Origin: Fibrobacteria bacterium
GTDB taxonomy: Bacteria; Fibrobacterota; Chitinivibrionia; Chitinivibrionales; FEN-1185
Length of the DNA stretch: 64,000 nt
Direction of reading: 5' to 3'
Assembly: GCA_037447435.1 (NCBI GenBank)
Contig: JBBIGR010000023.1
Coordinates: forward strand, 1-64,000
Under the pieces are notes generated by a model. That model saw only the letters and a program-made list of their open reading frames with translations. It ran no database searches and had not been told where the DNA came from. This document shows, piece by piece, positions 3,654 through 34,681 of the stretch (positions within the stretch are counted from its first letter, which is position 1; each line of letters opens with the position of its first letter). The position numbers and the translations under genes were made by a program.

Positions 3654-3865
3654 GAATAGGCCGGAATATAAGACTATGAAATTGCAGATATTCCTACCTA
3701 ATGGTAAAATAATATCCTCTGCATATCAAGGGTCACGAATACCATTATGATAAAAAAACAGTCCGAAACATTGATTTGCCTGTTTACCGTTCATGCGGTC
3801 ATCATATTTGTTTTATCGGTTTTGCTTTTTATCGCCAAATGGTTTCCATATGGAACCTATATCAA

Positions 3866-5686
3866 ATGGATGCAGCAATGGCTTTACAGAGTTTTTTAAG
3901 CCTCGGATTTACCGCTGCTTTTTTTCTGCTCCTTTTCGGCATCGGATCATTTATCCTGGAGAAAGCCTCGATCCGATGCAATGACCCGCTATTGCGGCTT
4001 TGCATGAGCATCGGCATCGGTTTTTGCCTGATCGGCAATGCGATGACGGCTGCAAACTTTTTGCATGTTGCCACGCCTATCGCGATCCGGATCGCCAGCA
4101 TCGCCCTGTGTATACTCTTTTTGCCCTATTGCTGGGGCAAACAAAAGGAAATTCTCGGAATAGGCAAATCGGTTCTCAAAACACTGCGCGCGAGTCACCC
4201 CGTTGTTGCGATATGCTTTATTTCTCTTATTTCGGGCTATTTGGCGCTCGCAGTGCTTCCGCCCACGGATTTCGACAGCTTGATGTATCATTTAGCCGTA
4301 GTGAAATTATGGTTGTCCCACGGCGGATTTTTCAACGTGTTTTTCAATCCGCAGGCCGATTTTCCCATGCTTACCGAAATGGTTTCCATGATCGGTCTTG
4401 CCTGGGGAAACGATATTATTTGTAAAACAATGTCCGTAGGCATCAGTTTCGTACTATTCGGCGCGATTGCGGTGATGTGTAAGAACTATTGCGGTACAAC
4501 GCGCATCGTGATTCCCTCGCTGTTGATATTCTTAACTTTTACAAATACAATAACCAATATGCCCGATTGGAACGTGGATACCGCCCAGGCATTATGGACG
4601 CTCCTGGCGGTTTTTTGCATGGACCGTTTCATCGAAACCGATCAACGGCGCAACGCAGTATGCGCGGGCTTGTTTGCCGGTATGGCAATGCAAACCAAAA
4701 TTTTCGGGGTATTTGTGCTGGCCGTATTAGCGGTTCAGGGCGTTGTGGCTTGGCGGCAGTGTTTCAACAAAAAAAAATTACTACAGGGGTTTGCCGTCGT
4801 CGTTCTTATTGCGATTTGTTGCGGATTGCCGTGGTACTGCAAAAGCTATTTATTTAAATCCACCATACTTTCCATGAGTTCACATGCTCTTATTGACAAT
4901 GAATTTAATAGCCCCCTCGGAATCGAAACGCATACCGGCATCATGTTTCTTTTAATCAATAGTGTGGGCCGACTTGTAAGTTGCTTTTGGTCATTTACTT
5001 TGTTTTTGCGTCATCATAGGGCCGATACTTTTGGCCCCTTGCTTCTTGTCGTGCTTCCATTTGCATGTTTTATAAAAATCCCTCAAAAAGTTATGGTGTT
5101 GTTTTACTGTGCAGCGTCATATTTTGTCTGCATCCTTGGAATGGAAATGGCTGTTTTACAATCGGGTTCCAGCATACGGTACTGCGGTTTCATTCTTGCC
5201 GTAGCTTCGGTGCTGATCAGCTGGACAATATCCCGTTTGTCCGAATTGCCAAAAATAAAAAGGATGCTGCAGATAATGGTCGTCGTAATGGTGTTTCTCG
5301 GCGCAACACTTTTTGTCAAACGGTATAACCGGGAATGGAAAGCTCTTTTTACAAATATGCCGCGTGACGCGTACCTATCCTCCGTATTGCCCGAATATCC
5401 GGTAATTTTGTCGATCAATTCCCTTTCGGATAAAGCAACGGTCATGCCGATTTACAATTTCTCGAATTATTACCTGGATGTCCCGTATATCGCGGCGTAC
5501 CGGAACTATGCGTCGGTTCAAGAAATGAAAAAGGATTTTATGGAAAAAAACATTCGCTATATATTTGCAAACGATAAGCTCGATACGGCCGCCAACGCCG
5601 GGGCGTTTCCGCAGATTCTAAAAAAGCAATGTATTGCTAAAAGGAACGGATTTTATTTGTTCAAAATCGACTTAAATGATTTCTGA
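3866..5686 (+). CDS. polytopic membrane protein, ArnT/PMT (GT-C)-like glycosyltransferase
   Basis: Many hydrophobic segments. Loop motif PPTDFDSLMYHL, plus GLFAGMAMQTK and GLPWY, are typical of GT-C-like proteins. Start uncertain (3776-3878). Confidence 0.6.
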   Translation: MDAAMALQSFLSLGFTAAFFLLLFGIGSFILEKASIRCNDPLLRLCMSIGIGFCLIGNAMTAANFLHVATPIAIRIASIALCILFLPYCWGKQKEILGIGKSVLKTLRASHPVVAICFISLISGYLALAVLPPTDFDSLMYHLAVVKLWLSHGGFFNVFFNPQADFPMLTEMVSMIGLAWGNDIICKTMSVGISFVLFGAIAVMCKNYCGTTRIVIPSLLIFLTFTNTITNMPDWNVDTAQALWTLLAVFCMDRFIETDQRRNAVCAGLFAGMAMQTKIFGVFVLAVLAVQGVVAWRQCFNKKKLLQGFAVVVLIAICCGLPWYCKSYLFKSTILSMSSHALIDNEFNSPLGIETHTGIMFLLINSVGRLVSCFWSFTLFLRHHRADTFGPLLLVVLPFACFIKIPQKVMVLFYCAASYFVCILGMEMAVLQSGSSIRYCGFILAVASVLISWTISRLSELPKIKRMLQIMVVVMVFLGATLFVKRYNREWKALFTNMPRDAYLSSVLPEYPVILSINSLSDKATVMPIYNFSNYYLDVPYIAAYRNYASVQEMKKDFMEKNIRYIFANDKLDTAANAGAFPQILKKQCIAKRNGFYLFKIDLNDF

Positions 5687-7015
5687 GCCTTTTTTTACCA
5701 GCCACAAGGCCCCGACTTTTTCGTGGAACGTTTGCAGGGGAAGTTTTGTTTTCAGCACGCAGTTGAAAAAATTATACTTTCGTAAATCATGGTCTATGAT
5801 TTGGTCTTTCATTTCCGAATACAGGGATGTTCCGGGCATGGGAGTTAAAACCGTGTACCCCGCATAGGTGACTTTTTCCGCATTGGCAAACTCGGCCAAT
5901 GCGTCGAAGTCGGAATCGTCGTAATCGGGCGATACGACGTAATTTCCGCGTATCATGATTCCGTTTTCGTGGAAAATGGAAATAGCCTTTTTTATATTTG
6001 CCGCATCAAGCTGCTTGTTGAATGCTGCAAGCTCATTTTGCCTGAACGATTCGAACCCGCAAATTACTACCTTGAGCCCGGCCTTTGCCATATGCGCAAT
6101 AAGGTCCGGGTTATTTGCGGCCGTATCGCAACGGATGTCCATGATGAAAAACTTATTGAGCCCTTCCTGGTTTATACGGTCGAAAAGGCGTCTCGCATAA
6201 TCCGCGTCAATCACCGAATTTGCATCGGCAAACCGTACCACGCCGTAATCGGTAAGGGTGCGCAATTCGGAAATGATGCTTTCGATGTCGCGCAGGAAAA
6301 ATCCTCCGTCCCATTGCGGCCAAATCGAGCAAAAGGAACATTTGAACGGGCATCCGAGCGATGTAAATAAATACGTGGCTTTTTGACCGCTTCCGCCCGG
6401 TGCCAGATATGCCGGGAGCCATTGCCGGATAAGAGATCGGTCCGGCATGAGAAAGTCCTTTGTTGCGTAATTCCTCAGCACGGGTTTTCCGGTTGTCGGA
6501 ATCAGTCCCGATTTCGTATTGAGCATACAGCCGGACAGTGTAGACATGTTCTTTTTGGTTTCAAGGGCCAGCGCGATGTCCGCAAACGTATGCGATGCTT
6601 GACCAATACAAATAATGTCCGCGGCAGATCCGGCAAAATCCGTTGGACACAATGTCGGGTGCAATCCGCCGGCCACGGTCAAAATGTTTTTGTCGTATTG
6701 CTTGACTGCTTTTAAAATTGCAATGCTTGAATCGAATTCCGATGCAATGACCGTGATGCCGACTATTGCCGGCGATGTTTTCTTACAATACTCAATGGCC
6801 AGTTCCGCCATATCCGGCGCGTTTTCATTGCAATCATATTCGGCTTTCATGTCCAGAACAGTAACATCGTGATGTCTCACTGCAGCGGCAACGGTTAAAA
6901 GACCAAGCGGCGGACCTATCAGTTTTTTATGGATAAAACGTTTTGCCGCTTCGGGCGCAAAAGTCCGAATTGCATTAAACGGCGATCGCGGAGGATTAAT
7001 AAGAAGAATATTCAT
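5672..7015 (-). CDS. cobalamin-binding radical SAM enzyme (class B methyltransferase, HpnR/BchE-like)
   Basis: N-terminal B12-binding domain (ILLINPP...PPLGLL.VAA, VAGGLHPT). CxxxCxxC is GCPFKCSFC; also GFES and LTPMPGT. The C-terminal DLRKYNFFNCVLKTKLPL resembles HpnR-like proteins. Confidence 0.85.
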   Translation of the reverse strand: MNILLINPPRSPFNAIRTFAPEAAKRFIHKKLIGPPLGLLTVAAAVRHHDVTVLDMKAEYDCNENAPDMAELAIEYCKKTSPAIVGITVIASEFDSSIAILKAVKQYDKNILTVAGGLHPTLCPTDFAGSAADIICIGQASHTFADIALALETKKNMSTLSGCMLNTKSGLIPTTGKPVLRNYATKDFLMPDRSLIRQWLPAYLAPGGSGQKATYLFTSLGCPFKCSFCSIWPQWDGGFFLRDIESIISELRTLTDYGVVRFADANSVIDADYARRLFDRINQEGLNKFFIMDIRCDTAANNPDLIAHMAKAGLKVVICGFESFRQNELAAFNKQLDAANIKKAISIFHENGIMIRGNYVVSPDYDDSDFDALAEFANAEKVTYAGYTVLTPMPGTSLYSEMKDQIIDHDLRKYNFFNCVLKTKLPLQTFHEKVGALWLVKKGSEII

Positions 7016-7482
7016 ACGGCCTTAAACGCATGGACTATTGCAGTCATATGGTTTTTTGTCCAAAGCGGTTGCGAGGTCCTGTTGCTCATTTTTCGCGTAT
7101 GCTTGGCTTTCTTTTCTAAAAAAGCGCCTGAAAGAATTTTTACCGTATAAGAAATATCCGGAAAGCAGGACGCGAGTTGACGAGAAATGCTGAATTTGCA
7201 TTTTTGAGGGTCGTCCGAATAGAAGAATTCGCAGTCGGTAAAATTATAGGGCTCAGGTAAAACTTTTTGCAAAGCTTCTTTTGTGCAAAACGAAGCGCAA
7301 AGCCCGATTGCCGGGTGTACAAGGGTCTTACAATGGGATTTTTCTTTTTTCGTGAAAACAAAGGGAAAAAAATCCAAAGGCGCGTTTTCCCATTGAACAA
7401 ACCTGTCGATATGCTCCGAATCGATTCCGCATCCAACGCATCGGACGCAGGAACTACATGTCCAGGTTAACGATGTTGTCAC
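7012..7482 (-). CDS. 4'-phosphopantetheinyl transferase, catalytic half (AcpS/Sfp C-domain-like)
   Basis: GCGIDSE (GxDxE), FTKKE and SFCTKEALQK (KEA motif) are present. The SISH motif is absent. GTG start overlaps the ACP gene. Confidence 0.7.
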   Translation of the reverse strand: MTTSLTWTCSSCVRCVGCGIDSEHIDRFVQWENAPLDFFPFVFTKKEKSHCKTLVHPAIGLCASFCTKEALQKVLPEPYNFTDCEFFYSDDPQKCKFSISRQLASCFPDISYTVKILSGAFLEKKAKHTRKMSNRTSQPLWTKNHMTAIVHAFKAV

Positions 7483-7762
7483 CGTGTTTTACAATTTTTA
7501 AGGTGAGAGTTACAACGTCTCCGATTGTCGTTGCCGGCTTTTTCATCAGGTGTTTGCCAAGAGTTTTAAGCTCTATTTTTAAATTGTATTTTTTTCGAAC
7601 AATTTCCAAAAGCGATAAAAGCATGAGCGAATCGCCTTCAAGTTCCTCTATAATGTTGGTTGAATCAACGAGTTTTGCAATATCTGTATCGCATTCCTCT
7701 GCAAAAAATTCATAGACGAGGCCCTTAATGTCATCATTGATTTTTTGATCGATTTCTGCCAT
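7454..7762 (-). CDS. acyl carrier protein
   Basis: 102 aa, acidic N-half, LEGDSL phosphopantetheine attachment motif, TIGDVV near the C-terminus, AGGAG RBS upstream. Confidence 0.85.
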   Translation of the reverse strand: MAEIDQKINDDIKGLVYEFFAEECDTDIAKLVDSTNIIEELEGDSLMLLSLLEIVRKKYNLKIELKTLGKHLMKKPATTIGDVVTLTLKIVKHGDNIVNLDM

Positions 7763-7832
7763 CGACGGCGTTGCTCCTATAATTAAAGATAATAAATAAG
7801 GTTTTTAAAATACTTTTTTTACACTATACTTA

Positions 7833-7854
7833 TACGATTTTTTAAACAATCGTA
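7833..7854. promoter_or_regulatory. 22-bp near-perfect palindrome between the divergent arms of the lipid cluster (candidate operator)
   Basis: TACGATT-T-TTTAAA-C-AATCGTA, one mismatched pair, in an AT-rich intergenic region. Confidence 0.4.
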
Positions 7855-7953
7855 AAAACAAGTTTTTTTCCGAATTCGGCTTTCCAACCCTTAAATATGC
7901 TTTTTAGAATGGTGCTGGATTTAATCTTAAGACGTTGTGTATTTTATCTGCTC

Positions 7954-8364
7954 ATGAATTTAAAGCCTAATTTCTCAATGCAGGTAACGGTAGAATTTGA
8001 GGACGTGGATTCGTATCGCATTGCGCATCATACGAAACTTATCGCATATCTCGAGCGAGCGCGCGTACGTTTTTTTTCAAACACGGGGTTCGACCTTGCC
8101 GCACCCGATATGGTTCTGGTTTTATATCACCTGGAAACCCAATTTAAAAAACCCGCGTTTTTTCAGGACGAGCTTTCAATTGGGGTGCATATCAAATCCT
8201 TCGACAGCTTCAGGCTCGTGCTGGGGTATAAAATTTTTCGTGACAAAGACCTTATTGCCCGGGCAACGACCGGATTATGTTTCGTGGATCCCGTCACCAA
8301 GGTTATGATTGCGGCGCCCGACAAATACGTCGATAAATTGACGCATGCATTACAGGGGGAATGA
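7954..8364 (+). CDS. acyl-CoA/ACP thioesterase (YbgC/4HBT hotdog fold)
   Basis: VEFEDVDSYRIAHH...YLERAR and FKKPAFFQDEL match the YbgC/FadM pattern. Start uncertain (7897-7978). Confidence 0.85.
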   Translation: MNLKPNFSMQVTVEFEDVDSYRIAHHTKLIAYLERARVRFFSNTGFDLAAPDMVLVLYHLETQFKKPAFFQDELSIGVHIKSFDSFRLVLGYKIFRDKDLIARATTGLCFVDPVTKVMIAAPDKYVDKLTHALQGE

Positions 8365-8373
8365 AAACGATTT

Positions 8374-9582
8374 ATGCCTGAACAAGTGGTAATTACCGGT
8401 CTTGGCTGCGTGAGCGGTCTGGGGCTAGATGTCGCATCTTCGTGGAAAGCGCTTGTATCCGGAACAAACCCGGTCAAAAGATTTTCCCTTTTCGACCCGC
8501 TCGATTTGCCCAATTTCTTCGGCGTCGAATTGGCCGACGGCGCGCAGGACTTGTTTACTACTCATATAAAACCGAGAAGCCGTTCGCAAATGACCAGAGC
8601 GACCATGATCGCCGTCGCGGCGGCGGACATGGCGGTCTCCGACGCGCAGCTGGATTTTGCCGCTTGTAATGCATCCCGCATCGGCGTTGTTTCAGGGGCA
8701 ACCGGAACCGGATACGGCTTTGTCGGGGAAAAAGACGAGCTGCGGATTTTACGCAATATGGCAAACGCGTCGGCCTCATGGATAAGCCTGCGTCATAAAT
8801 GTCAAGGACCGTCGTACGTCGTCAGTACGGCATGTTCGTCTGGCGCATATGCGCTCAGTTGCGCCTACGACCTCGTTGCCTACGGCCAATGCGATATCGT
8901 CATTGCCGGCTCGGCCGATTCTTCCATAAATTTCCCCGATGTTCAGGGATTCTGCAGTCTCATGGCATTGTCCGAAGAAAAGGACTTTGTCAACGCTTGT
9001 CGGCCGTTCGATGCGCGGCGGAACGGATTTGTCATGGGCGAGGGCGGCGGCATGCTTATCGTCGAATCGTCCGGACATGCCGCAAAACGCGACGCGCACA
9101 TCTATGCGAGGCTGCAAAGACCGGCTTTGACAAGCGAAGCGTACAATATATTGTCTCCCCAGCCCGGCGGCATCGGCATGGCGCAGGCTATGGAGCGGGC
9201 TTTGGCAAATGCGCAATTAATACCGGGCGATATCGATTACATCAATGCGCATGGAACGTCCACGCCCTACAACGACCTGTATGAAACCCAGGCGATCAAA
9301 TCGGTTTTCGGCGACGCGGCCTTCCGCATACCCGTTTCCTCGACCAAGCCGCAAACCGGGCATTGCCTGGCGGGCGCCGCCGGCGTCGAGGCGGTATTAT
9401 GCGTCAAGGCTTTGTGCGAAGGCGTCGTTCCGGCGACCATAAACCTTTCCCAGGCCGATCCGGAATGCGATCTGGATTATGTTCCCTTGACCTGCAGAAA
9501 AAAAACAATGAAACATATCATGTCCAATTCCTTTGCATTTGGCGGACACAACGGCGTATGCATATTTTCGGCATATGAGTAG
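8374..9582 (+). CDS. fabF: beta-ketoacyl-ACP synthase II family
   Basis: VVITGLG, STACSSG (Cys), RPFDARRNGFVMGEG, INAHGTST (His), TGHCLAGAAGVE (His), SNSFAFGGHN. The Cys-His-His triad is intact. Confidence 0.9.
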   Translation: MPEQVVITGLGCVSGLGLDVASSWKALVSGTNPVKRFSLFDPLDLPNFFGVELADGAQDLFTTHIKPRSRSQMTRATMIAVAAADMAVSDAQLDFAACNASRIGVVSGATGTGYGFVGEKDELRILRNMANASASWISLRHKCQGPSYVVSTACSSGAYALSCAYDLVAYGQCDIVIAGSADSSINFPDVQGFCSLMALSEEKDFVNACRPFDARRNGFVMGEGGGMLIVESSGHAAKRDAHIYARLQRPALTSEAYNILSPQPGGIGMAQAMERALANAQLIPGDIDYINAHGTSTPYNDLYETQAIKSVFGDAAFRIPVSSTKPQTGHCLAGAAGVEAVLCVKALCEGVVPATINLSQADPECDLDYVPLTCRKKTMKHIMSNSFAFGGHNGVCIFSAYE

Positions 9583-10684
9583 GCCCGTTTATATCGCAGG
9601 AACAGGATCTTTTCTTCCCGGAGATCCGATTCCGTTCGACCGCATCGACTCGGTTCTTGGTCCCCTTTCCCAGGCGCCCCAGTCCATACGGAAATGGTAC
9701 GAGTCCCGCGCCGCAGTCATGAGGGAACTTTTAGACGTGTCGTATGTGCATTATGCCATAGATCCGGTCACGAGAAAATTTACCGAAGATAATGTGACCA
9801 TGTCGGTGAAAGCAGCCATGGCCGCATGCGCTCACGCGGCTATGGCTCCGTCCGACATCGAATTCATCAGTTACGGTTCCGCCCATCAGGACCAAATGCC
9901 CACAGCCTCGGTTCGAATACAGGAGGCCCTGGGCATCGAACGATGCGCCGAACTTTCCATTCATGCGAATTGCACTTCCGCTTACAAGGCCTTGCATTGC
10001 GCGTTCGAATTCGTTAAAAACGGTGTTTACAAAAACGCATTGGTTATTTCCTCGAGCATGTCGTCGTCGGAATTGGTAGCCGAATATTACAATCAGGAAA
10101 AATTGGACAGGGAATCCCTTTTTCTCCGGTGGTTTTTGTGCGACGGTGCCGGTGCGGTTTTGCTTTCGAGCGATCCCGCATTGTCCAAAGGGTATGCTTT
10201 GACCCATACGTTCATCGAATCGATCGGCGGAAAAAAGCCGTCGCTCATGTTCAATGAACGCCCGGCATATTGGCTGCCGCCGAAACAGGAATACGAGGAA
10301 GCGCGTCACCATTTGCGCCAGACGTTCCGCAATGCCCTTTCGACCGAGGTGTTTCAGGAAAAAGAGGGGTCGGTGTTTTTTAACGGACTCATGCGAATGG
10401 TTTCGGCGGGAAACATTCCCTTGGCAAAAATAAAGCTTTTTCAGGTCAATATGCCGACAAAGCATATCATCGAATCGATAATGGACGAATGTGAAAAGGC
10501 CGGCATCAACCGGTCGGCACTGTATTCCCGGCTCTCCGACTTAGGATATGTCGGTCCGCCTATGGTTTTTATCTGTCTGGACGGCATCATTAAGAATGAG
10601 AAATTGCAAAGCGGCGATTTGATCGTCAGTTTTGTCACAGAAGTAAGCAAATTCATGCAGGCGGGATATTGTATATCGGCATGA
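9575..10684 (+). CDS. KAS III-family (DarB/StlD/FabH-like) thiolase-fold enzyme with altered catalytic residues
   Basis: VYIAGTGSFLP, HANCTS (Cys), FLRWFLCDGAGA. The His and Asn positions read FQVNMP and LGYVGP. Confidence 0.8.
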   Translation: MSRPVYIAGTGSFLPGDPIPFDRIDSVLGPLSQAPQSIRKWYESRAAVMRELLDVSYVHYAIDPVTRKFTEDNVTMSVKAAMAACAHAAMAPSDIEFISYGSAHQDQMPTASVRIQEALGIERCAELSIHANCTSAYKALHCAFEFVKNGVYKNALVISSSMSSSELVAEYYNQEKLDRESLFLRWFLCDGAGAVLLSSDPALSKGYALTHTFIESIGGKKPSLMFNERPAYWLPPKQEYEEARHHLRQTFRNALSTEVFQEKEGSVFFNGLMRMVSAGNIPLAKIKLFQVNMPTKHIIESIMDECEKAGINRSALYSRLSDLGYVGPPMVFICLDGIIKNEKLQSGDLIVSFVTEVSKFMQAGYCISA

Positions 10685-11607
10685 CCACCCAACCGAAAAT
10701 CGCATTCGCTTTTCCCGGCGCCGGCGTCGATCCGTGCGGGTATGAAAAAGCGTTTTATTCGCAGTATGAAACCCTGATGAAACCGTATCTGGACATTGCC
10801 TCCGATTTTGCCCGATTCGATTTTGTCCAAGCCGTGAAGCGCGAAGAAATTTCCCGCCTTGACGAAAAAAACAGTCAGCTCTTCGCTTTTGCCTATAGTC
10901 ATGCAACTGCCATGGTTTATTTGCGCAGCCATATCACGCCGTCGTGTGTCGGCGGGTACAGCCTCGGCGTGTATGCCGCGCTTTCGGCAACCGGCGTTTT
11001 TTTATATGAAACCGGGTTGCAAATTGTCGCACAAGCGTTCGATATCATGCAAAAAAGCTGTTCAAGCTCGGAGTTCGCAATGGGTGCGGTTGTCGGTTGT
11101 GCATCGGAAGAAATACGGACACTGCTGGAAAATAATGCCGTGGGCTCATTAACTGTTGTCAATACCAATAACAAAACCTGCAGCATACTGTGCGGATTGC
11201 CGCACGAACTTGAAATGTTTTTTCACATCGCTAAAAATGCAAATGCGTTTTCCGTAAAACGGCTCCCGGTGCGCTTGCCGTATCATCATCCTGTGTATAT
11301 GGCGCAGGCGTCAAAGGATTTTGCCGCCTATTTGCGTTCGGTTCCTTGCAGCGATGCAATTGTCCCGATAATTTCTTCGGTAAATCAGATACCGGTCCGG
11401 TCCGCACATGAATGCAAATCGCTCCTCGTGACCAATCTTTCCACACCCATACATTGGGAAAAGGTCGTGGAAACCATGTATTCGAACCATATAACAACGA
11501 TGTACGAATGCGGTCCGGGTATTTCTTTGTTGCAAAACGGCAGGTTTATGGATAATGATATGTCGTATATAACAATAAAAAAAACTATCAGGAGCGCTTT
11601 GTCGTGA
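10681..11607 (+). CDS. ACP S-acyltransferase (FabD-like)
   Basis: AFAFPGAG, GGYSLG (catalytic Ser), LPVRLPYH, PIHW, YECGPG. Confidence 0.85.
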   Translation: MTTQPKIAFAFPGAGVDPCGYEKAFYSQYETLMKPYLDIASDFARFDFVQAVKREEISRLDEKNSQLFAFAYSHATAMVYLRSHITPSCVGGYSLGVYAALSATGVFLYETGLQIVAQAFDIMQKSCSSSEFAMGAVVGCASEEIRTLLENNAVGSLTVVNTNNKTCSILCGLPHELEMFFHIAKNANAFSVKRLPVRLPYHHPVYMAQASKDFAAYLRSVPCSDAIVPIISSVNQIPVRSAHECKSLLVTNLSTPIHWEKVVETMYSNHITTMYECGPGISLLQNGRFMDNDMSYITIKKTIRSALS

Positions 11608-12674
11608 GCAAACGCATCGCAATCGCAGGCAGCGGTAAAATGGCCAAAGACGTGGGCATGTATTTCCTGAAAAAAGGAAACAGCATTACTTGGATTTCAC
11701 GGCAGGAACAATTGCTGATCGATTTACAGGCAAGCATCGATAAATCGGTACGCATGTTCATGAAGTATTCGGGCGGTATGGTCAAGCAATTGTCGGCCTC
11801 GTTTCTCCTCTACGACGAATTGGAAAAAGACAAATTCGACGTCGTCATCGAATGCACGAAAGAGGTTTTGCAAGACAAAAAGGACGTTTTCGCCTCCTTG
11901 GAAGGGCATATTGCCGATAAGGGATTGCTGTTTTCGGTTTCGTCATCGATCCTGCCTTCGCAAATTCACGAAGCGTGCATCGGCTTTCATGCCATGTTTC
12001 CATTGGAAATGACCACCACTGCCGAGCTTGTAATCGGCAATTCGATCGCACCTGCTTGCCGGGACGCCGCATTATTGTTTTGTAAAGAAAACGACGTCGA
12101 TTTCATTGTTCAAAACGAGAAAAATGCTTTTGCCCTGAACCGGCTTTTATTACCGCTTCAAAACGAAGTGCTTACGGCATTGCTCGATACTGTTTCAACG
12201 CGCGACGTAAACAGCGCATCGCGGTCGTTATTGTTACCGTTAGGCCAAATCGATTTGATTGAAAAAATCGGGCCCAACATAGTTGGGGCGTCGGTAGAAT
12301 CCTATCGGCGTCGGATGGATCCCGTCGAATCCGCAGCGTTTGAACCATTGTCAAAGGGACTGTCCGCATTCCAATCCTATGTGCACAATTCTTCGACGCA
12401 ACCGTTATTGCCCGACGACAAGTACAATGAATTTAAAAACCGCTTGTTGTGTCTGTTTATAAATACCTGTTTGACGTTTATCGAACAAAAACAGATTCCC
12501 AGGCAGGAATTGGATTCCTCGTTTTCCGATGTGTTTTCGTCCGAAGGCACCTTGCAGAATGCAATCGACGATGTCGGCTTGGAAACGATAATCGAAGTTT
12601 GCAATGCGGAATATAAAAAAACGGGGAAATATTATTTCAAACCATCACTGCACGCCGACGGGCAGCCTTTATGA
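11604..12674 (+). CDS. 3-hydroxyacyl-CoA dehydrogenase-like protein
   Basis: Rossmann IAIAGSGKMA, DVVIECTKE..DKKDVF, SSSI, IGFHAMFP...ELV, FALNRLL. Confidence 0.75.
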   Translation: MSKRIAIAGSGKMAKDVGMYFLKKGNSITWISRQEQLLIDLQASIDKSVRMFMKYSGGMVKQLSASFLLYDELEKDKFDVVIECTKEVLQDKKDVFASLEGHIADKGLLFSVSSSILPSQIHEACIGFHAMFPLEMTTTAELVIGNSIAPACRDAALLFCKENDVDFIVQNEKNAFALNRLLLPLQNEVLTALLDTVSTRDVNSASRSLLLPLGQIDLIEKIGPNIVGASVESYRRRMDPVESAAFEPLSKGLSAFQSYVHNSSTQPLLPDDKYNEFKNRLLCLFINTCLTFIEQKQIPRQELDSSFSDVFSSEGTLQNAIDDVGLETIIEVCNAEYKKTGKYYFKPSLHADGQPL

Positions 12675-13342
12675 CAGACGGGATTTTACCGGACAACGCG
12701 ATAACCCTCCGGATCGGGGAAGGGAATTTTGACCTTTGCCCGTTGCTCCATGCCGATGCAAACAACCTGCGGTCGCTTTTGGAAATGCCCGATGTTAAAA
12801 GTTGCTTATTGGTAGTCGGCGGTATTTTGGAAAACGGACCCCAAAAAGCATTGCCGGCGGAATCGAATGCGCGCTTCGCCGGAGAAATCATCGATGCGAT
12901 TCGTTTTGCACCCGTGCCGGTTGCGGGAATCCTGCATACCTGTGCGTACGGCGCTTCGCTGAATTTGTTTCTTGCTTGCCATTTGCGGTTTGCGTCTCCC
13001 GAGGCGGTCATGAAATTCTCGTTGGGCTCCTCGCAAGTATACAATGGCTTTGAACGGGATTTCCGGCATTCTCCCGAACTCATGCAGACATTTTCGTTTA
13101 ACGAAACGGTCGATGCGGTAAAGGCAATGCGATTAGGATTGGTCCACGAAATTGTGGAAGGAGCCATCATAGAAAACAAGGTCAGGGACTATGTTAACGG
13201 GCTGATTTCGGGCAAGCATAAAAAGGTCGTTTCCAGCGTTTTGCATGCGGTCCATGCAAGCAGGAATCTTCCGGTGCACGAGGCGTTGGCTGTAGAGACG
13301 CGGTTGTTTTGCGACTTGGCAAAAGAGGGTGGCCATGAATAA
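12671..13342 (+). CDS. enoyl-CoA hydratase/isomerase-like protein, degenerate
   Basis: PVPVAGI...AYGASLNLFLACHLRFAS, VDAVKAMRLGLVHEIV, EALAVETRLF. The canonical catalytic Glu residues are not evident. Confidence 0.65.
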   Translation: MTDGILPDNAITLRIGEGNFDLCPLLHADANNLRSLLEMPDVKSCLLVVGGILENGPQKALPAESNARFAGEIIDAIRFAPVPVAGILHTCAYGASLNLFLACHLRFASPEAVMKFSLGSSQVYNGFERDFRHSPELMQTFSFNETVDAVKAMRLGLVHEIVEGAIIENKVRDYVNGLISGKHKKVVSSVLHAVHASRNLPVHEALAVETRLFCDLAKEGGHE

Positions 13343-13721
13343 AAGCTCCGGCGATCGGTTTATCACGACAAGTGTCGTATCTGTAAAAATCAACAAGTCG
13401 CCGAAGGCCTTGGAGTTGTTGCGAAACGCCTGTTTTTCCTCTGAAAAAGAAAAACCGGTTTTCCACTATCCTGCGCAACGTATTGCCGGGCTTGCCGCTT
13501 GCAAAAAGGCGATTGCAAAAGTTATACGCGAAATGTTCGGGGCGACCATCCGGGCAAAAAGCATAGTTTTAACCCATCGGACCGCCGCTTCACCGAAAAT
13601 TGCTTCTTTGCCAAAGGAATTCGCGCCCTTAGAAAAAGACTTTTGTATTTCGCTGTCCCACACAAAAACCCATGCGTTCGGTTGCGCCGTGCTCACGATA
13701 CAAGGGGACGACGGTGAGTGA
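13335..13721 (+). CDS. AcpS-fold protein, non-catalytic half (Sfp N-domain-like)
   Basis: IAGLAACKKAIAK (KEA changed to KKA), ASPKI (GKP-like) and ISLSHTKTHA. No GxD motif. Confidence 0.6.
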   Translation: MNKSSGDRFITTSVVSVKINKSPKALELLRNACFSSEKEKPVFHYPAQRIAGLAACKKAIAKVIREMFGATIRAKSIVLTHRTAASPKIASLPKEFAPLEKDFCISLSHTKTHAFGCAVLTIQGDDGE

Positions 13722-14355
13722 AAAGTCGCCTTGCATCACGTTTCATCTTGAAAACGCCATCGCGTATGTAACGATAGCCAGCCCGCCCAAAAATGCCATG
13801 GGCAATTCTTTTTTCATGGAATTGGCTCGCATGCGAAAAGATGTTTTTGCCGCATTATCCCCACGCAACGTGCGGGGAATGGTTGTCTGCGGCATGGGGC
13901 GTCATTTCTCGTGCGGCGCCGATCTTATGGAGTTAAAAGATGCGCTTGCCCACATGGATCGTCAAAAAGGCATCAACGGATTGCTTGACAACAGCAGCAG
14001 TTTCTCCGCCATTGCGGATATGCCGTTTCCGGTTGTGGCGGCAATAAGCGGCTGTTGTTTGGGAAGCGGTCTCGAGCTTGCGTTGGCCTGCCATTATCGT
14101 ATCGCAACAAAAAATGCCGTCCTCGGCCTGCCCGAAACCACGTTCGGGCTCATTCCCGGCTGCGGCGGCACGGTCAGGTTGACGAAACTGATCGGTCATG
14201 AAAAAGCCCTTAAGATTATTTTGTCGGGATCGTCCATGCTCGCAGACGAAGCGAAAAACGCGGGCATAGTGGATCTGGTTGTGGAAAAACAGGACTTACT
14301 GGCCTCGGCAACCAGGTACATCGAAGAAAATCCGTCCCGCAACGGCAATGCATAA
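13714..14355 (+). CDS. enoyl-CoA hydratase/isomerase
   Basis: PPKNAM, FSCGADL, PVVAAISG.CLGSGLELALAC and LPETTFGLIPGCGGT, with both catalytic Glu present. GTG start at 13714 after AGGGG. Confidence 0.9.
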   Translation: MSEKSPCITFHLENAIAYVTIASPPKNAMGNSFFMELARMRKDVFAALSPRNVRGMVVCGMGRHFSCGADLMELKDALAHMDRQKGINGLLDNSSSFSAIADMPFPVVAAISGCCLGSGLELALACHYRIATKNAVLGLPETTFGLIPGCGGTVRLTKLIGHEKALKIILSGSSMLADEAKNAGIVDLVVEKQDLLASATRYIEENPSRNGNA

Positions 14356-17641: not shown

Positions 17642-19069
17642 ATGAAAAAGAAAAAAGTCCTGCTTGTTTATACCAATACCGAAAAAGCCCCGTATCCGGT
17701 TCCGCCCATCGGCCTTTGTCTATTGGCCCAGGAAATTAAATCCGAATATGACGTAATGATATTCGACGGTCTCATGCGTCCGCATACGGAATTGCCGGAT
17801 ACGATAAACGATTTCCAGCCCGATTATATCGGTATCGGCATCCGGAATATAGACAATATTGTTATGGACAATCCGTTGTATTATATCGACGGCATATTCG
17901 AAACTTTCATTGCGCCGATCCGTCACTGTACTAAAGTTAACCTTATCGTCGGCGGAAGCGGTTTTTCCGTTTTCCCTATGGAAATACTGAAACGGTTCGG
18001 TATTGAATACGGCATCGTGGGCGAGGGAGAAACATCGTTTCCCCGGCTTCTTGACGCATTGGATAACGGGAAGAGCGGCCGCGGCATTCCGGGCGTTGTC
18101 CACGTCGACGATCAAGTCGAATCTTCGCTTTCGTTACCGGGCGATTTACCAACAAAATTTCCGGTTCAGTCTGAAATCGACGCTTGGATCGATTTTTCTC
18201 CGTATCGTCAACGCGGCGCATATCCGGTTCAAACGAAACGGGGGTGCAGTCAGCAATGCATCTATTGCACCTATCCCTGTATAGAAGGTACAAAGTATCG
18301 GAGACGTGACCCAAAAGAAATTGCCGATGAAATCGAGGCGACATGCCGAAGGCTTGGCGACGTGCTTTTCGAATTTGTTGATTCCACTTTTAATGATCCG
18401 CCCGGTCATGCCGAGCAAATTTGCCGTGAAATCATAAAAAAGAAAATCAAAGTCCGGTTACGTACCATGGGCATTAATCCGCGCGGTGCGAGCAAGGAGC
18501 TGTTCGACCTCATGGTCGCGGCCGGATTCACGCAAATCGATTGCACGCCGGATTCCGCTTCCGGCATCATGCTTTCGAATTTGCGGAAAAACTTTACAAA
18601 AAAAGAACTTGAGGTAACGGCGCTGCATATACGACAATGCAATATTCCCACGATGTGGTTTTTTATTTTCGGCGGGCCGGGCGAAACCGAAGAAACCATA
18701 CGGGAAACATTCTCATTTATCGATGAATTCGTGAACGAACAGGATATGGTGTATATGATGGTAGGTCTTCGTGTTTACCCCGGTACCGAGCTTTATGATA
18801 TTGCCGTTGCCGAAGAATGCTTTCCAAAAGACACATCGATTTTAAAACCGGTTTTTTACGTACCCAAAAGCGTTTCACGGCAAAAAATCGACGCGCTCCT
18901 TTCCGAAGCCGCGCAAAAAAGGCATAACTGCGTTCTTGCCGCAAATTCCACTCCGCCTCCCGAGCTTATGCAAAAAGCAATGAAACTCCGCAACGAACAA
19001 AACCTCAAAGAACCGATGTTTCGGACCTTGCTTCGTATAAGAAAAGAAATGATGGCGCAGTCCGTTTAA
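17642..19069 (+). CDS. cobalamin-binding radical SAM protein (lipid-biosynthesis-associated type)
   Basis: VLLVYTNTEKAPYPVPPIGL, IRNIDN, GGSGFS, VQTKRGCSQQCIYCTYP (CxxxCxxC), FVDSTFN, FGGPGET, RVYPGT. Likely start MKKKKV at 17642. Confidence 0.85.
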   Translation: MKKKKVLLVYTNTEKAPYPVPPIGLCLLAQEIKSEYDVMIFDGLMRPHTELPDTINDFQPDYIGIGIRNIDNIVMDNPLYYIDGIFETFIAPIRHCTKVNLIVGGSGFSVFPMEILKRFGIEYGIVGEGETSFPRLLDALDNGKSGRGIPGVVHVDDQVESSLSLPGDLPTKFPVQSEIDAWIDFSPYRQRGAYPVQTKRGCSQQCIYCTYPCIEGTKYRRRDPKEIADEIEATCRRLGDVLFEFVDSTFNDPPGHAEQICREIIKKKIKVRLRTMGINPRGASKELFDLMVAAGFTQIDCTPDSASGIMLSNLRKNFTKKELEVTALHIRQCNIPTMWFFIFGGPGETEETIRETFSFIDEFVNEQDMVYMMVGLRVYPGTELYDIAVAEECFPKDTSILKPVFYVPKSVSRQKIDALLSEAAQKRHNCVLAANSTPPPELMQKAMKLRNEQNLKEPMFRTLLRIRKEMMAQSV

Positions 19070-19181: not shown

Positions 19182-19237
19182 TTTATTATTTATAATAATA
19201 AATATTATATTATTTATAATCGTATTTATTGTACAAT
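19182..19237. promoter_or_regulatory. AT-rich promoter region with two palindromes upstream of brnT (candidate antitoxin operator)
   Basis: TTTATTATT-TAT-AATAATAAA at 19182-19202 and ATTGTACAAT at 19228-19237. Confidence 0.4.
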
Positions 19238-19255
19238 CAATATAACGGTGTTTCC

Positions 19256-19522
19256 ATGGACTTTGAATGGGATCATGATAAAAATATCCTTAATGTAAAA
19301 AAACACGGCATTTCATTTGAGGTTGCGGTAAAAGCATTTCTTGATCCTAAACGAAAAATCCGTTTAAATAAAAAACATTCGGTAGTTGAATTGCGATACT
19401 ATTGTCTTGGCATGGTTGAAGGCCGAGTATTAACCGTTAGGTTTATAGTTAGAGGAAGCAAAGTTCGAATAATTGGCGCAGGATACTGGCGTGAAGGGAG
19501 AAAGATATATGAGCAAGATTAA
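19256..19522 (+). CDS. brnT: BrnT family toxin
   Basis: MDFEWDHDKN..N.KKHGISFE.A...F.DP, ELRY..LG, VLTVRF..R...VRIIGA. Confidence 0.9.
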   Translation: MDFEWDHDKNILNVKKHGISFEVAVKAFLDPKRKIRLNKKHSVVELRYYCLGMVEGRVLTVRFIVRGSKVRIIGAGYWREGRKIYEQD

Positions 19523-19763
19523 GAGCTATACCAATGCTCCGTCCGACATTGCAGAGGAACTTAAAAATTCCGTCGCCACCGATGATTTTCTGCCGTCTCC
19601 GGAAAGCATAGCAAATGGTTTAAAAAAACAGGAAACCATACCCGTAACAATGAAGCTTAAAAAAGAAACCGTTGCCCGGTATAAAAGATTTGCGGATAAG
19701 AAAGGAATCAAATACCAAACGTTTGTTTCGGAAGTTTTGGATTCCTATGCAAAAAAGCTGTAG
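19509..19763 (+). CDS. BrnA/CopG-like ribbon-helix-helix antitoxin
   Basis: Overlaps the toxin stop. DDFLPSP and VTMKL...V..YK..A...GIKYQT...VLDSY match the BrnA/CopG pattern. Confidence 0.8.
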   Translation: MSKIKSYTNAPSDIAEELKNSVATDDFLPSPESIANGLKKQETIPVTMKLKKETVARYKRFADKKGIKYQTFVSEVLDSYAKKL

Positions 19764-19772
19764 AAGAAAGAT

Positions 19773-19847
19773 TGGAGGCGGCACCCAGATTTGAACTGGG
19801 GAATAACGGTTTTGCAGACCGCTGCCTTACCACTTGGCTATACCGCC
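19773..19847 (-). tRNA. tRNA-Cys(GCA)
   Basis: Reverse complement GGCGGTATAGCCAAGTGGTAAGGCAGCGGTCTGCAAAACCGTTATTCCCCAGTTCAAATCTGGGTGCCGCCTCCA. Cloverleaf, GCA anticodon, CCA encoded. Confidence 0.97.
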
Positions 19848-19898: not shown

Positions 19899-19975
19899 TG
19901 GAGCGAGAGACGAGATTTGAACTCGCGACGGCCACCTTGGCAAGGTGGAGCTCTACCAGTCTGAGCTACTCTCGC
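19899..19975 (-). tRNA. tRNA-Gly(GCC)
   Basis: Reverse complement GCGAGAGTAGCTCAGACTGGTAGAGCTCCACCTTGCCAAGGTGGCCGTCGCGAGTTCAAATCTCGTCTCTCGCTCCA. Confidence 0.97.
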
Positions 19976-28912: not shown

Positions 28913-31900
28913 CTAAGGTTTCCAAATCGCATACAAGGTTATATTGGACGTTCCAATTGGTAAACTGTTGCCTGTAGCATATGTGGTACCGGCACCAAGA
29001 GGATCGGTGTTCCATCCGCTAAAATTAAACCCGGTATTTACAAGAGTGCCAGAATCAAGAACTGTCGCATTTTGGCCTGGAGCGTAGGTGTTCGGGTCAA
29101 CCGGGGCTGTTCCACCGGTATTGTTGTTCCCGTTATACGTAACCGTAAAATTTGCTGCGAAACTTACAGCTATCGTATGGTTTACAGAAATGTTTGTAAA
29201 AGAGTATGTCGTTACTGCACCTTGCGAAACGCCGTCGACCAGCACCTCTGCGACATGATAGTTAGAAGCCGGCGTTATAGTGAATGTCTGTGATGCTGCG
29301 GCATTGACAACCACGGAACCGCTCGGAGAAATGGAGCCATTGGCGCCCGCAGATGCCGAGATGGTAAATGTGTTGACGGCGAACGTTGCACTGATGCTGT
29401 GATTTGCCGTAATACTTGTAAAGTTAAATGCGGTAATAGCACCTTGCGAAACGCCGTCGACCAGCACATCGGCGACATGATAATTGGCTGCCGGCGTTAT
29501 TGTGAATGCCTGTGAGGTTGCGGCGTTGACAACCACGGAACCGCTCGGCGATATGGAACCGTTGGCACCCGCGGACGCCGAAATCGTGAAAGTATTGACG
29601 GCAAAAGTCGCGCTTATCGTATGGTTGGCTGTGATATTTGAAAAAGTGAATGTCGAAACAGTGCCTTGCGAATTTCCGTCGACCAAAACGTCGGCAATAT
29701 GATAATTTGCGGCCGGCGTCAAGGTGAATGTTTGCGAAGTAGCGGCGTTAACGACCACCGAACCGTTCGGCGAAATGGATCCGTTGGAGCCGGCCGAAGC
29801 CGTAATAGTGAAGGTATTTATGGCAAAAGTCGCGCTTATCGTGTGGTTGGCAGTTACATTCGTAAAGTTGAACGTCGAAACGGAACCTTGTGAAATTCCG
29901 TCGACCAAAACGTCGGCGACATGATAATTTGCGGCAGGCGTCATGGTAAATGCCTGAGCGGTAGCGGCGTTAACCACCACCGAGCCGTTCGGCGAAATGG
30001 ATCCGTTGGAGCCGGCCGAAGCCGTAATGGTGAATGTGTTTATGGCAAAGGTAGCGCTTATCGCGTGACTTGCAGTCACATTGGTAAATGTATAGGTCGT
30101 GACTTGCCCTTGTGAAACGCCGTCCACCTGCACGTCGGAAATATGATAATTTGCCGCGGGTGAAATTGTAAATGTCTGGTTGGTTCCAATGACCACCGAA
30201 ACAGATCCCGCGGGCGAAATAGAGCCGTGAGACCCGGCCGTCGCAATAATGGTTGCCGTCGGAACGGCAGTCCACTGCGCATATAAAATCACGTTTGCGG
30301 TTCCCATGGTAAATGTTGCACCGGCATTATACCCGGCACCGTTTCCGCCGGACTGGGTATTCCATCCCATAAAGGTGTATCCCGATCGAGCAAGATTCCC
30401 GGTATTGCCCAGAACCACCACCGATTGTCCCGTTGCATAGCGGGCGTTGTCCACGGGGACGTTGCCGGATGTTGCGGTAGTAGAATTATAAATAACCGTA
30501 TATGTCTGGTTCCATTGTGCATACAATATCACATTCGAAGTGCCGATCACCAGAACGCTGCCCGACGTGTAGGATACCCCGCTGCCGTCCGAAGCAGTAT
30601 TCCAACCTGCAAACGCGAATCCTGATTTCGCAAGGCCTCCCGTATTACCGAGAACGGCAGCAGTTTGGCCGGTCGTGTAATGCCCGTTGTCCGTGGGTAC
30701 GTTCCCCGAACCTCCGTTTGCATTATAGCTTACCGTATAGGTCGGTATCAGGTTCCATCGTGCGTACAATGTTTCGTTCGCATTTCCCAGGACAAATGTC
30801 GATCCCGCAATGAACAGGGTCCCGTTTCCTGCCGCTGCAGTGTCCCATCCTGCAAATGAATATCCTGTTCTTGAAAGGTTTCCGGTGTTTCCCCGTACGA
30901 CGACGCTCGCACCTGCCAGGTAATTGTTCGGATCAACCGGAACAGACCCGCCGGTACTGCCATTTTTGTTGTATGTCATGGTGAATGTAGGATTTGCGGT
31001 CCATTGGGCATACAAAATCAGGTTGGCCGAACCCATTGTAAAGGTGGCGCCGGCGGCATAACTCGTGCCGCTGCCGTTTGTTTTCGTGTTCCATCCAACG
31101 AAAGTAAACCCGGATTTAACAAGGTTTCCCGAGTTTAAGGCCGCGGTAACGGATCTGCCGGCAATGTAGTTATTCGTATCCGTCGGTATGGATCCCCCGG
31201 TATTACCGTTGCCGTCATAAGAAACCGTAAATGTCGGGAGGGCTGTCCATTTTGCAAATAAAGTCACGTTGGAGGATCCCATGGTAAAGGATGCCCCCGC
31301 TGCATAACTGATCCCGCTGCCGTCGGCAGCCGTATTCCACCCGCTAAAAGTAAAACCTGATTTTGCAAGAGCTCCGGTGTTGCTGCTTGCGATGACGCCT
31401 TGTCCCAGGACATAATGGGCTGTGTCGGAGGGAATTGTCCCGCCGGTGTTGCCGTTGCCGTTATAGGTTACGGTGTATGTCGAAATGATTGCCCACTGTG
31501 CATACAAGACCACATTGGTTGAGCCCATTGTAAAAGTTGAGCCGACCGCATAGCTGGTTCCGCCGCCGTTCGCTTGCGTATTCCAGCTTGCAAAAGAATA
31601 GCCGGTCCTGACAAGAGATCCCGGGTTAAGAACGGTCACGATGGAACCGGACAGGTAGTTGTTGATATCAGTAAGAACCGTTCCGCCGGTATTGCCGTTA
31701 CCGTTATAGGTGACGATATACGTGGAATTTGCGGTCCACTGTGCATACAAAATCACGTTGGCCGAGCCCATTGCAAAAGTAACCCCGGCGGCATAGCTTG
31801 TACCGCTGCCGTTCGTTTTCGTGTTCCATCCAACGAACGTAAATCCCGTTTTGGAAAGAGTACCGGTATTCGACGATACGGAAACGGAAGCACCGACGGT

Positions 31901-34624: not shown

Positions 34625-34665
34625 ATAAAAACTCCTGAAAAAATCGGCATATACTAAATAGGGCA

Positions 34666-34681
34666 TGCTAATTGCGTGCCA
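34666..34681 (-). promoter_or_regulatory. sigma54 -24/-12 promoter motif for the giant lipoprotein
   Basis: Minus strand TGGCACGCAATTAGCA, 42 bp upstream of the likely ATG. Confidence 0.65.

Follow-up and report, generated by a model that had tools for sequence, protein, structure and literature searches.

The stretch analysed here (the window: all 64,000 nucleotides from position 1 of the forward strand of contig JBBIGR010000023.1, in the Fibrobacterota assembly GCA_037447435.1) carries at 5672–14355 eleven open reading frames (ORFs) that we consider as a candidate lipid pathway. All eleven were found in the order and on the strands proposed by an earlier reading made from the letters of the DNA (the sequence-only reading), whose family calls also hold, and they form two divergent, overlapping runs. 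From the central spacer outward, the left arm (minus strand) encodes an acyl carrier protein (ACP; 7454–7762, 102 aa, Pfam PP-binding), a protein with the fold of the phosphopantetheinyl transferase (PPTase) AcpS (AcpS-fold protein 1; 7012–7482, Pfam ACPS, with profile matches to AcpS structures) and a B12-binding radical S-adenosylmethionine (SAM) enzyme (5672–7015, 447 aa). The right arm (plus strand) encodes a hot-dog thioesterase of the 4HBT/YbgC type (7954–8364, assigned by profile matches, its start set from homologues), a FabF-type ketosynthase (8374–9582, also by profile matches), a second ketosynthase of KAS III fold (the KS; 9575–10684), a FabD-like acyltransferase (AT; 10681–11607, 144 bits on the fabD profile against a cut-off of 261), a 3-hydroxyacyl-CoA dehydrogenase family enzyme (11604–12674, by profile matches), crotonase-1 (12671–13342), AcpS-fold protein 2 (13335–13721, profile match to Bacillus subtilis AcpS, E 2e-12) and crotonase-2 (13714–14355, Pfam ECH_1, E 1e-38, start from homologue comparison). 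Adjacent genes share 4–29 nt, with start and stop codons overlapping at every junction except that of thioesterase and FabF, where there is a 9-nt gap. The two arms are parted by an A+T-rich spacer of 191 nt (7763–7953), presumably the promoter region, with promoter-like matches (consensus matches only) at 7756–7783 and 7881–7910 on the plus strand; the spacer had no Rfam match, and no B12 riboswitch reached the Rfam threshold anywhere in the window. As the sequence-only reading had remarked, no member of the FabG, FabZ or FabI families was matched within 5672–14355 in Pfam and NCBIfam profile searches.

Since FabF, an AT and an ACP all lie in this block, one might suspect housekeeping fatty acid synthesis (FAS). 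The host genome (5.05 Mb, 99.6% complete) has, however, a complete canonical plsX-fabH-fabD-fabG-acpP-fabF operon on contig C27 (labels from sequences and BLAST matches), so the block is not the housekeeping synthase, nor is it the only fabF/fabD/acp set of the genome. The cluster is moreover present in only 13 of the 81 genomes of the order, and its AT lacks the malonyl-binding Arg; we thus regard a housekeeping role as refuted, with next to no chance of being correct.

The sequence-only reading was also right to treat the genes as a dedicated, conserved cluster, as the set is syntenic in many genomes. Of 4723 candidates obtained with the KS, 1334 proved to be relatives at E ≤ 1e-20. When 185,579 species genomes were scanned, 324 stretches came up as candidates and 289 of them were confirmed; for metagenomes the corresponding figures were 544 and 383. 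The best 80 of the 289 genome loci were examined, and their titles name Fibrobacterota, Bacteroidota, Myxococcota, Desulfobacterota, Spirochaetota, Calditrichota, Hydrogenedentota, Rokubacteria and Kiritimatiellia, taxa from which we judge the carriers to be anaerobes. No cultured carrier is named among them: all 80 are metagenome-assembled genomes (MAGs), and two top-120 protein lists name MAGs or nothing. In the 37 of these 80 loci that hold the full 21 kb (the long loci), the genes found within 10 kb of the KS are the dehydrogenase (37), FabF (36), two crotonases (35), AT (30), ACP (30), thioesterase (28), core radical SAM enzyme (25) and an accessory radical SAM enzyme described below (17). 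Many long loci come from related Bacteroidales and are not independent, and gene order varies between phyla; because the arrangement recurs across phyla, it is far beyond chance. The seven long loci without a nearby ACP all carry it elsewhere in the genome, in five cases within ~5 kb of the core radical SAM gene. FabG-like genes account for 6 ORFs across 172 loci, and a plasmid collection held only distant relatives of the KS (ten listed matches at 25–27% identity). Some relatives have gene fusions (accessory radical SAM with dehydrogenase, crotonase-1 with crotonase-2, and crotonase-1 with AcpS-fold protein 2; the sites are L077:11100-13703, L041:12987-14306, L022:8379-9407 and L042:8219-9310). 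No characterised biosynthetic gene cluster (BGC) was matched via NCBIfam, PDB or literature searches, and no published description of the gene set was found in a literature coverage that lacks most subscription journals. The cluster is real, widespread and apparently uncharacterised.

The most informative member is the KS. Its top PDB sequence match is StlD (E 3e-19), the AlphaFold model (pLDDT 93) has StlD as its best fold match (TM 0.85), and the top six Foldseek matches are all StlD chains (TM 0.84–0.86), with FabH-type structures listed at 0.70–0.79. In a FastTree phylogeny of 96 rows, comprising full-length representatives, canonical DarBs, family members and three FabH-type proteins of the host genome, the family forms a clade sister to DarB/StlD, with support 1.0 at the joint node, and it keeps the StlD-specific motif FLRW-L-x-DGAGA. 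Among 154 distinct family sequences, Cys133 is kept in all, Asn292 occupies the StlD His position in all, and Tyr325 occupies the StlD Asn position in 153, its orientation being taken from homology, whereas His and Asn are retained in most full-length tree rows of the DarB clade. The position of StlD Glu154, a residue that we take as a mark of StlD/DarB ketosynthases, is Ser in 64, Asn in 46, Gly in 41, Gln in 2 and Ala in 1, and never Glu; H130, H245, H246 and H297 are invariant. On the two StlD/DarB profiles of NCBIfam the KS scores below the cut-offs (NF005293, 118.8 vs 450 bits; NF053539, 94.8 vs 550), whereas 607 and 615 bits are reached by a canonical DarB taken from one of the carrier genomes. 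Because it belongs to a sister clade, has changed residues and falls far under the cut-offs, the KS is, as judged from its sequence and tree position, not a DarB, yet of the same descent. It probably still forms an acyl-Cys intermediate, and it has probably lost decarboxylation of malonyl groups, because the His/Asn pair acts as the clamp in the enzymes treated in the accessible text of PMC5506619 and both residues are replaced here.

The same residues suggest another way to read the KS, namely as an acyl carrier or transferase only: a short unsaturated chain would be methylated or cyclised on the ACP by the radical SAM enzyme, and the Cys enzyme would then transfer it to an external acceptor, forming an ester or amide. 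Retention of Cys with loss of His and Asn is the pattern of transferase-type KAS III enzymes, one shared by ChlB6 and PtmR. CerJ likewise has an altered triad (PMC5506619, as far as the accessible text goes). Deeper members of the KS clade (P0126, P0129, P0130, P0134, P0135, P0138, P0139, P0142 and P0152; those named include Phycisphaerae, KSB3 and Clostridia) keep Cys and Tyr alone, with position 292 mostly Ser or Gly (Asn in P0126, P0129 and P0130, Asp in P0134). In addition, the radical SAM gene stays with the ACP when the cluster splits, and therefore fits action on an ACP-bound chain. Transfer alone would not account for the StlD-specific motif and the closer fit to StlD than to the FabH-type structures listed, and outside Bacteroidales no conserved acceptor-making or envelope gene lies beside the core. 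We consider pure transfer the main rival, a minority possibility to be taken seriously. The sequence-only reading had proposed that an altered KS transfers the chain; the alteration stands, and because the KS is the sister of the ring-forming StlD/DarB clade, the evidence leans somewhat more to ring closure than to transfer alone.

The core radical SAM enzyme has an N-terminal B12-binding and a radical SAM domain, both above the Pfam cut-offs, and its CxxxCxxC motif is conserved in 51 orthologues, the make-up of a cobalamin-dependent (class B) radical SAM enzyme. Forty-one of the 80 genomes, chosen for their long contigs (26 from Bacteroidales, 15 from other groups), were searched whole, and an orthologue at 50–65% identity was present in 41 of 41. 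Among 251 Fibrobacterota genomes, a KS orthologue is found in 13, and the core radical SAM enzyme in those 13 and one other; on these two counts it is a core part of the system. The additional genome (G137, C36:20774-22114, 51% identity) yielded no cluster KS, ACP or dehydrogenase, which represents either cluster loss or an assembly gap. The nearest profiles are HpnR (121 bits vs a cut-off of 650) and BchE (112 vs 481), both far below cut-off, and because the two score alike and low, a role as C-methylase or as an oxygen-free substitute for DarA would fit the sequence equally. A second B12 radical SAM enzyme (17642–19069, plus strand), absent from the coordinates of the sequence-only reading and added here to its gene set, lies 3.3 kb downstream of the cluster beyond hisD, floA and one unknown gene, and is related to TIGR04072 (319 bits vs 360). 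Orthologues occur in 30 of the 41 carrier genomes and in 3 of the 13 Fibrobacterota carriers (251 genomes; six candidates per genome scored), and so it is a non-core part of the same system. A third, DUF4070-containing radical SAM family is accessory in 16 of the 37 long loci, with a host orthologue on C51. The host genome also holds at least 12 other B12-radical-SAM-like genes, and further FabF/ACP/B12-radical-SAM groups at C2:154779-165653, C22:10756-20036, C30:43560-47028 and C16:32202-35026.

Such enzymes bring to mind a ladderane-type pathway, in which a polyene on the ACP would be cyclised by B12 radical SAM enzymes. The TIGR04072-like accessory enzyme and a CrtI-like gene in 7 of the 37 long loci are in keeping with it, as are the ladderane-labelled BGCs in non-anammox Fibrobacterota, Myxococcota and Desulfobacterota mentioned in the accessible part of PMC9902471. 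The enzyme and the CrtI-like gene are accessory, however, and the anammox cluster is described, in the source text available, with amxFabZ, FabF paralogues and desaturases; in PMC2649909, "hydratase" and "3-hydroxyacyl-CoA" have 0 word-start occurrences. With TIGR04072 at 319 of 360 bits, no FabZ in the block and the CrtI-like gene in only 7 of 37 loci, the cluster does not match the ladderane type, and we hold this explanation to be highly improbable.

The remaining parts are conserved but rewired. In the ACP, D44, S45 and L46 are conserved in at least 85% of 70 homologues. What the sequence-only reading called half-PPTases are indeed kin of AcpS, but are not halves: each is a complete AcpS-fold domain, and the motifs lost from one complement those lost from the other. 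In AcpS-fold protein 1, G-x-D-x-E and KEA-x-x-K are present (D21, E23, K68, E69 and K73 invariant in 29 sequences) but G-x-P and S-H are missing; AcpS-fold protein 2 has G-x-P and S-x-S-H (with G54, P89, S108 and H111 the same in all 31 sequences) but none of the acidic residues for metal binding, and Lys stands where AcpS has the Glu of KEA. Neither chain alone thus unites D, E and KEA with GxP and SH, the motifs being split over two genes. Both genes co-occur in 25 loci, and the complementary motifs lead us to infer that the proteins pair, although a direct profile comparison of the two gave a probability of only 5% while each matches AcpS structures. A separate PPTase is encoded on C42. The AT keeps its catalytic Ser98 and His206 in 83 of 83 sequences. 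At the position of FabD Arg117, which binds the malonyl carboxylate (PMC11775670, in the text available), alignment to FabD structures shows Ala in 82 and Val in 1. Because this Arg is lost, the AT should carry uncharged acyl groups; action as an editing hydrolase is also possible.

The dehydrogenase retains its catalytic S114, H129, E141 and N179 in 102 of 102 sequences. Position 32, which is Asp in the solved Hbd/HAD structures, carries Asp in 2 of the 102, Glu in 3 and mostly Cys, Ser or Thr in the others, and the glycine loop has Lys or Arg in 99. The Asp after the second Rossmann strand is, we assume, what selects NAD in Hbd/HAD, and its loss suggests that the enzyme uses NADP(H) and works reductively, in biosynthesis. 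The sequence-only reading had taken the dehydrogenase and crotonases for beta-oxidation-type enzymes; the families hold, but for want of that Asp a role as reductase and dehydratase is more likely. An NADPH-linked member of the dehydrogenase family is known (PMC9393629, from the part available). Both catalytic Glu residues are present in 214 of 222 crotonase domains, and all eight exceptions are first crotonases, from several lineages. The crotonase-1 of the host, which has no Pfam match and weak NCBIfam matches, is likewise degenerate by alignment, with Asn at the first catalytic Glu and the PE...PGxGG and FxxGAD motifs gone, and crotonase-2 has Glu/Glu. Repeated decay of the first copy while the second is kept makes one active hydratase seem enough.

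These two families could also be expected in a catabolic block, with carrier-bound beta-oxidation and the KS as a thiolase-like enzyme of C–C cleavage, for example of a 1,3-dione ring. In favour of this, the dehydrogenase is the only member of its family found in the host genome, the only other crotonase-fold match there lies within a menaquinone-type operon, and Asn292 of the KS presumably resembles the thiolase Asn. The dedicated ACP, the PPTase-fold genes, the intact FabF and the NADP-type cofactor site nevertheless point to synthesis, and the conserved neighbours include no recurring family of acyl-CoA dehydrogenases, electron transfer flavoproteins (ETF) or transporters, so that catabolism appears very unlikely.

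Alternatively, one could envision the KS coupling two chains once, by a Claisen or Michael reaction and without a ring, after which the dehydrogenase and crotonases would reduce and dehydrate the adduct, yielding a branched open-chain fatty acid or a hydrocarbon precursor. Such a product would suit an active site that does not decarboxylate, as well as the two crotonases and a dehydrogenase of reductive type. Against it, Met108 and Ser102 of the KS stand at the catalytic Glu positions of OleA and HMG-CoA synthase (HMGS), a mapping for which we presume the FabH numbering; FabF keeps its Cys in 86 of 86 sequences, unlike the KS0 of beta-branching systems; and the crotonases are ordinary Glu/Glu hydratases in nearly all domains, as counted above. 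We judge this explanation unlikely. A beta-branching cassette as such was rejected on the same FabF and crotonase counts, together with HMGS profile scores of at most 39 bits. The Cys-His-His triad of FabF is intact, with C154, H293 and H330, and also F387, in 86/86. Compared with three other FabFs encoded in the host genome, the family lacks ~14 residues ahead of the "NM" helix, in a segment that we take to line the acyl pocket.

DarB condenses a beta-keto and an alpha,beta-unsaturated thioester (PMC6836626, in the accessible text), and StlD is described, in the accessible text of 10.1101/2022.10.20.513026, as taking unsaturated intermediates only, in a pathway without an AT that borrows its ketosynthase, reductase and dehydratase from type II FAS (FAS II). 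Because the present cluster encodes those four activities beside a sister of StlD, we favour a self-contained condensation of two chains. The cluster would then be an oxygen-independent StlD/DarB counterpart that assembles 3-oxoacyl and 2-enoyl chains on a dedicated ACP and fuses two of them into a cyclohexanedione- or resorcinol-type lipid tailored by radical SAM chemistry, a reading that we hold tentatively and rate a little short of an even chance.

Direct observation covers which genes are present and their synteny, the exchanged residues, the fold and the position in the tree; the chemistry that we infer from these would run as follows. The two AcpS-fold proteins would jointly activate the ACP, the Arg-less AT would load an uncharged acyl starter, and the housekeeping FabD would supply malonyl-ACP. 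FabF would extend the chain to 3-oxoacyl-ACP, part of which would be converted to 2-enoyl-ACP by the NADPH-type dehydrogenase and a crotonase, acting in place of FabG and FabZ, with no enoyl reductase. The Cys/Asn/Tyr KS would load one chain on Cys133 and couple the other without decarboxylation, the core radical SAM enzyme would C-methylate the product or oxidise the ring in place of DarA, and the thioesterase would serve in release or editing. A bolder form of this proposal, in which the work of FabG/FabZ on a private ACP is taken over by an NADPH-dependent (S)-3-hydroxyacyl dehydrogenase together with a crotonase, the Cys-Asn-Tyr condensing enzyme has new chemistry, and the obligate B12 radical enzyme aromatises or C-methylates the ring without oxygen, to make an unseen class of resorcinol-like lipids widespread in anoxic sediments, is conceivable but doubtful.

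The genomic context of the Bacteroidales carriers bears on the product. There a cassette of flexirubin type (additional paralogues of FabF, ACP, ApeI-like dehydratase, LolA, polysaccharide deacetylase and GT2-DUF2062) is frequently the direct neighbour of the module, with such genes adjoining in 16 of 26 genomes, and FlxY is above cut-off in 22 of the 26; in flexirubin-type Bacteroidales the product might serve as the hydroxyl-bearing partner of the aryl polyene. In favour of the preferred reading, canonical darA/darB were found in 1 of these 16 genomes vs 6 of the other 10. Four DarA queries found no match in the 172 loci or the host genome. Of 51 carrier genomes, 7 gave strong darA matches, always next to a canonical darB. 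Some relatives carry optional tailoring genes, a sulfotransferase upstream of the ACP and, in 4 of 37 loci, an O-methyltransferase (L036:6900-7982; L058:6631-7722); these neighbours are compatible with a hydroxyl-bearing product.

Several observations weigh against ring closure of the StlD/DarB kind and against the flexirubin link. Only Cys remains of the triad in the KS, where the StlD Glu is exchanged as well, and His and Asn mutants of the related head-to-head enzyme CorB are inactive (PMC5506619, in the accessible text), so that the same ring closure is not assured. Canonical darB is above cut-off in 8 of the 41 carrier genomes (seven Bacteroidales and one Fibrobacterota), and the module is thus not a simple substitute for it. 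The split of canonical darA/darB among the Bacteroidales (1 of 16 vs 6 of 10) is drawn from related, incomplete and hand-picked genomes. No aromatase was identified for the cluster, and four carriers, one of them a single-chromosome genome, yielded no FlxY-like ligase. In the order of the host, FlxY-like ligases are present in 63 of 81 genomes, as compared to 13 of 81 for the cluster; because they are common there regardless of the cluster, a specific flexirubin tie in Fibrobacterota is not supported. The FlxY-like protein of the host itself (431.6 bits vs a cut-off of 520) is encoded on another contig, with flexirubin-like genes scattered on C20 and C2.

Around the cluster, a 636-aa PMT_2-like membrane protein (3776–5686, plus strand) converges on the core radical SAM gene with a 15-nt overlap at its stop; it was rejected as a cluster member, with a homologue in only 1 of 172 loci. 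Farther downstream lie a BrnT/BrnA-type toxin-antitoxin pair (19229–19763) adjoining two tRNA genes (19776–19847 and 19902–19975), a 1917-aa protein with 16 Listeria-Bacteroides repeats and InlB B-like repeats (28913–34666, minus strand), beside it a Ser/Thr-kinase-like gene (34817–36712, read from sequence), a large exopolysaccharide-type locus (38787–59203) with Wzc-like, VanZ, beta-helix, GNAT/FemAB and sugar transferase genes and, as read from sequence, flippase, glycosyltransferase and aminotransferase genes, and a phage-integrase-family gene close to the window end (61257–62681, plus strand).

Three separable firsts may be at hand: a thiolase-fold enzyme with Cys/Asn/Tyr for Cys/His/Asn, a dehydrogenase-crotonase pair as the reductase and dehydratase of an ACP cycle, and a PPTase divided over two AcpS-fold genes. 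As the cluster occurs in uncultured representatives of about nine phyla, its product could be a lipid or biomarker of anoxic habitats that has gone unrecognised, and the defined set of eleven genes is an expressible unit.

Among known systems, the closest is DarABC/StlCDE (also BrtCD), which makes dialkylresorcinols, cyclohexanediones and bacterial stilbenes. The cluster shares with it the fold of a KS in the sister clade and a dedicated ACP, and the Bacteroidales module sits inside flexirubin-type clusters as does darAB of Flavobacterium johnsoniae (PMC3992019, in the part available). In contrast, the cluster KS has Asn/Tyr/Ser for His/Asn/Glu and profile scores far below cut-off, and there is no DarA; the cluster has its own FabF, AT, dehydrogenase, crotonases, thioesterase and PPTase-fold genes, with no borrowing from FAS II, and a near-obligate B12 radical SAM enzyme. 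DarB homologues without DarA and of unknown product are noted in cyanobacteria as well (PMC6836626, from the accessible text). With the type II FAS and aryl polyene cycle (FabD, FabF, FabG, FabZ/ApeI) it shares the ACP, a FabF with intact triad, an AT and a thioesterase; it differs in having a 3-hydroxyacyl-CoA dehydrogenase family enzyme and crotonases for FabG/FabZ and an AT without Arg117. Polyene systems do without an enoyl reductase, and so does this cluster. Like the clusters of anammox ladderane bacteria and Desulfotalea psychrophila, it has B12 radical SAM enzymes near FAS-like genes in anaerobes, with TIGR04072-like and CrtI-like accessory genes, but its core has no amxFabZ/FabG, and the ladderane genes given in the source text available do not include its KS, dehydrogenase or crotonases. 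The cassettes for polyketide beta-branching (ACP, KS0, HMGS, ECH1, ECH2, AT) are built of similar parts, with an ACP, a FabF-like ketosynthase, a KAS III-fold enzyme, two crotonases and an AT. Those cassettes are characterised by a Cys-less KS0, the HMGS catalytic set and a Glu-less decarboxylase, whereas the FabF of the cluster keeps its Cys, its KAS III-fold enzyme is without the HMGS Glu/His/Asn, its crotonases are normally Glu/Glu, and no modular polyketide synthase lies nearby. Lastly, as compared to PPTases of the AcpS and Sfp types, both small cluster genes have the AcpS fold with motifs split over two genes on opposite arms, in a manner resembling the two halves of Sfp.

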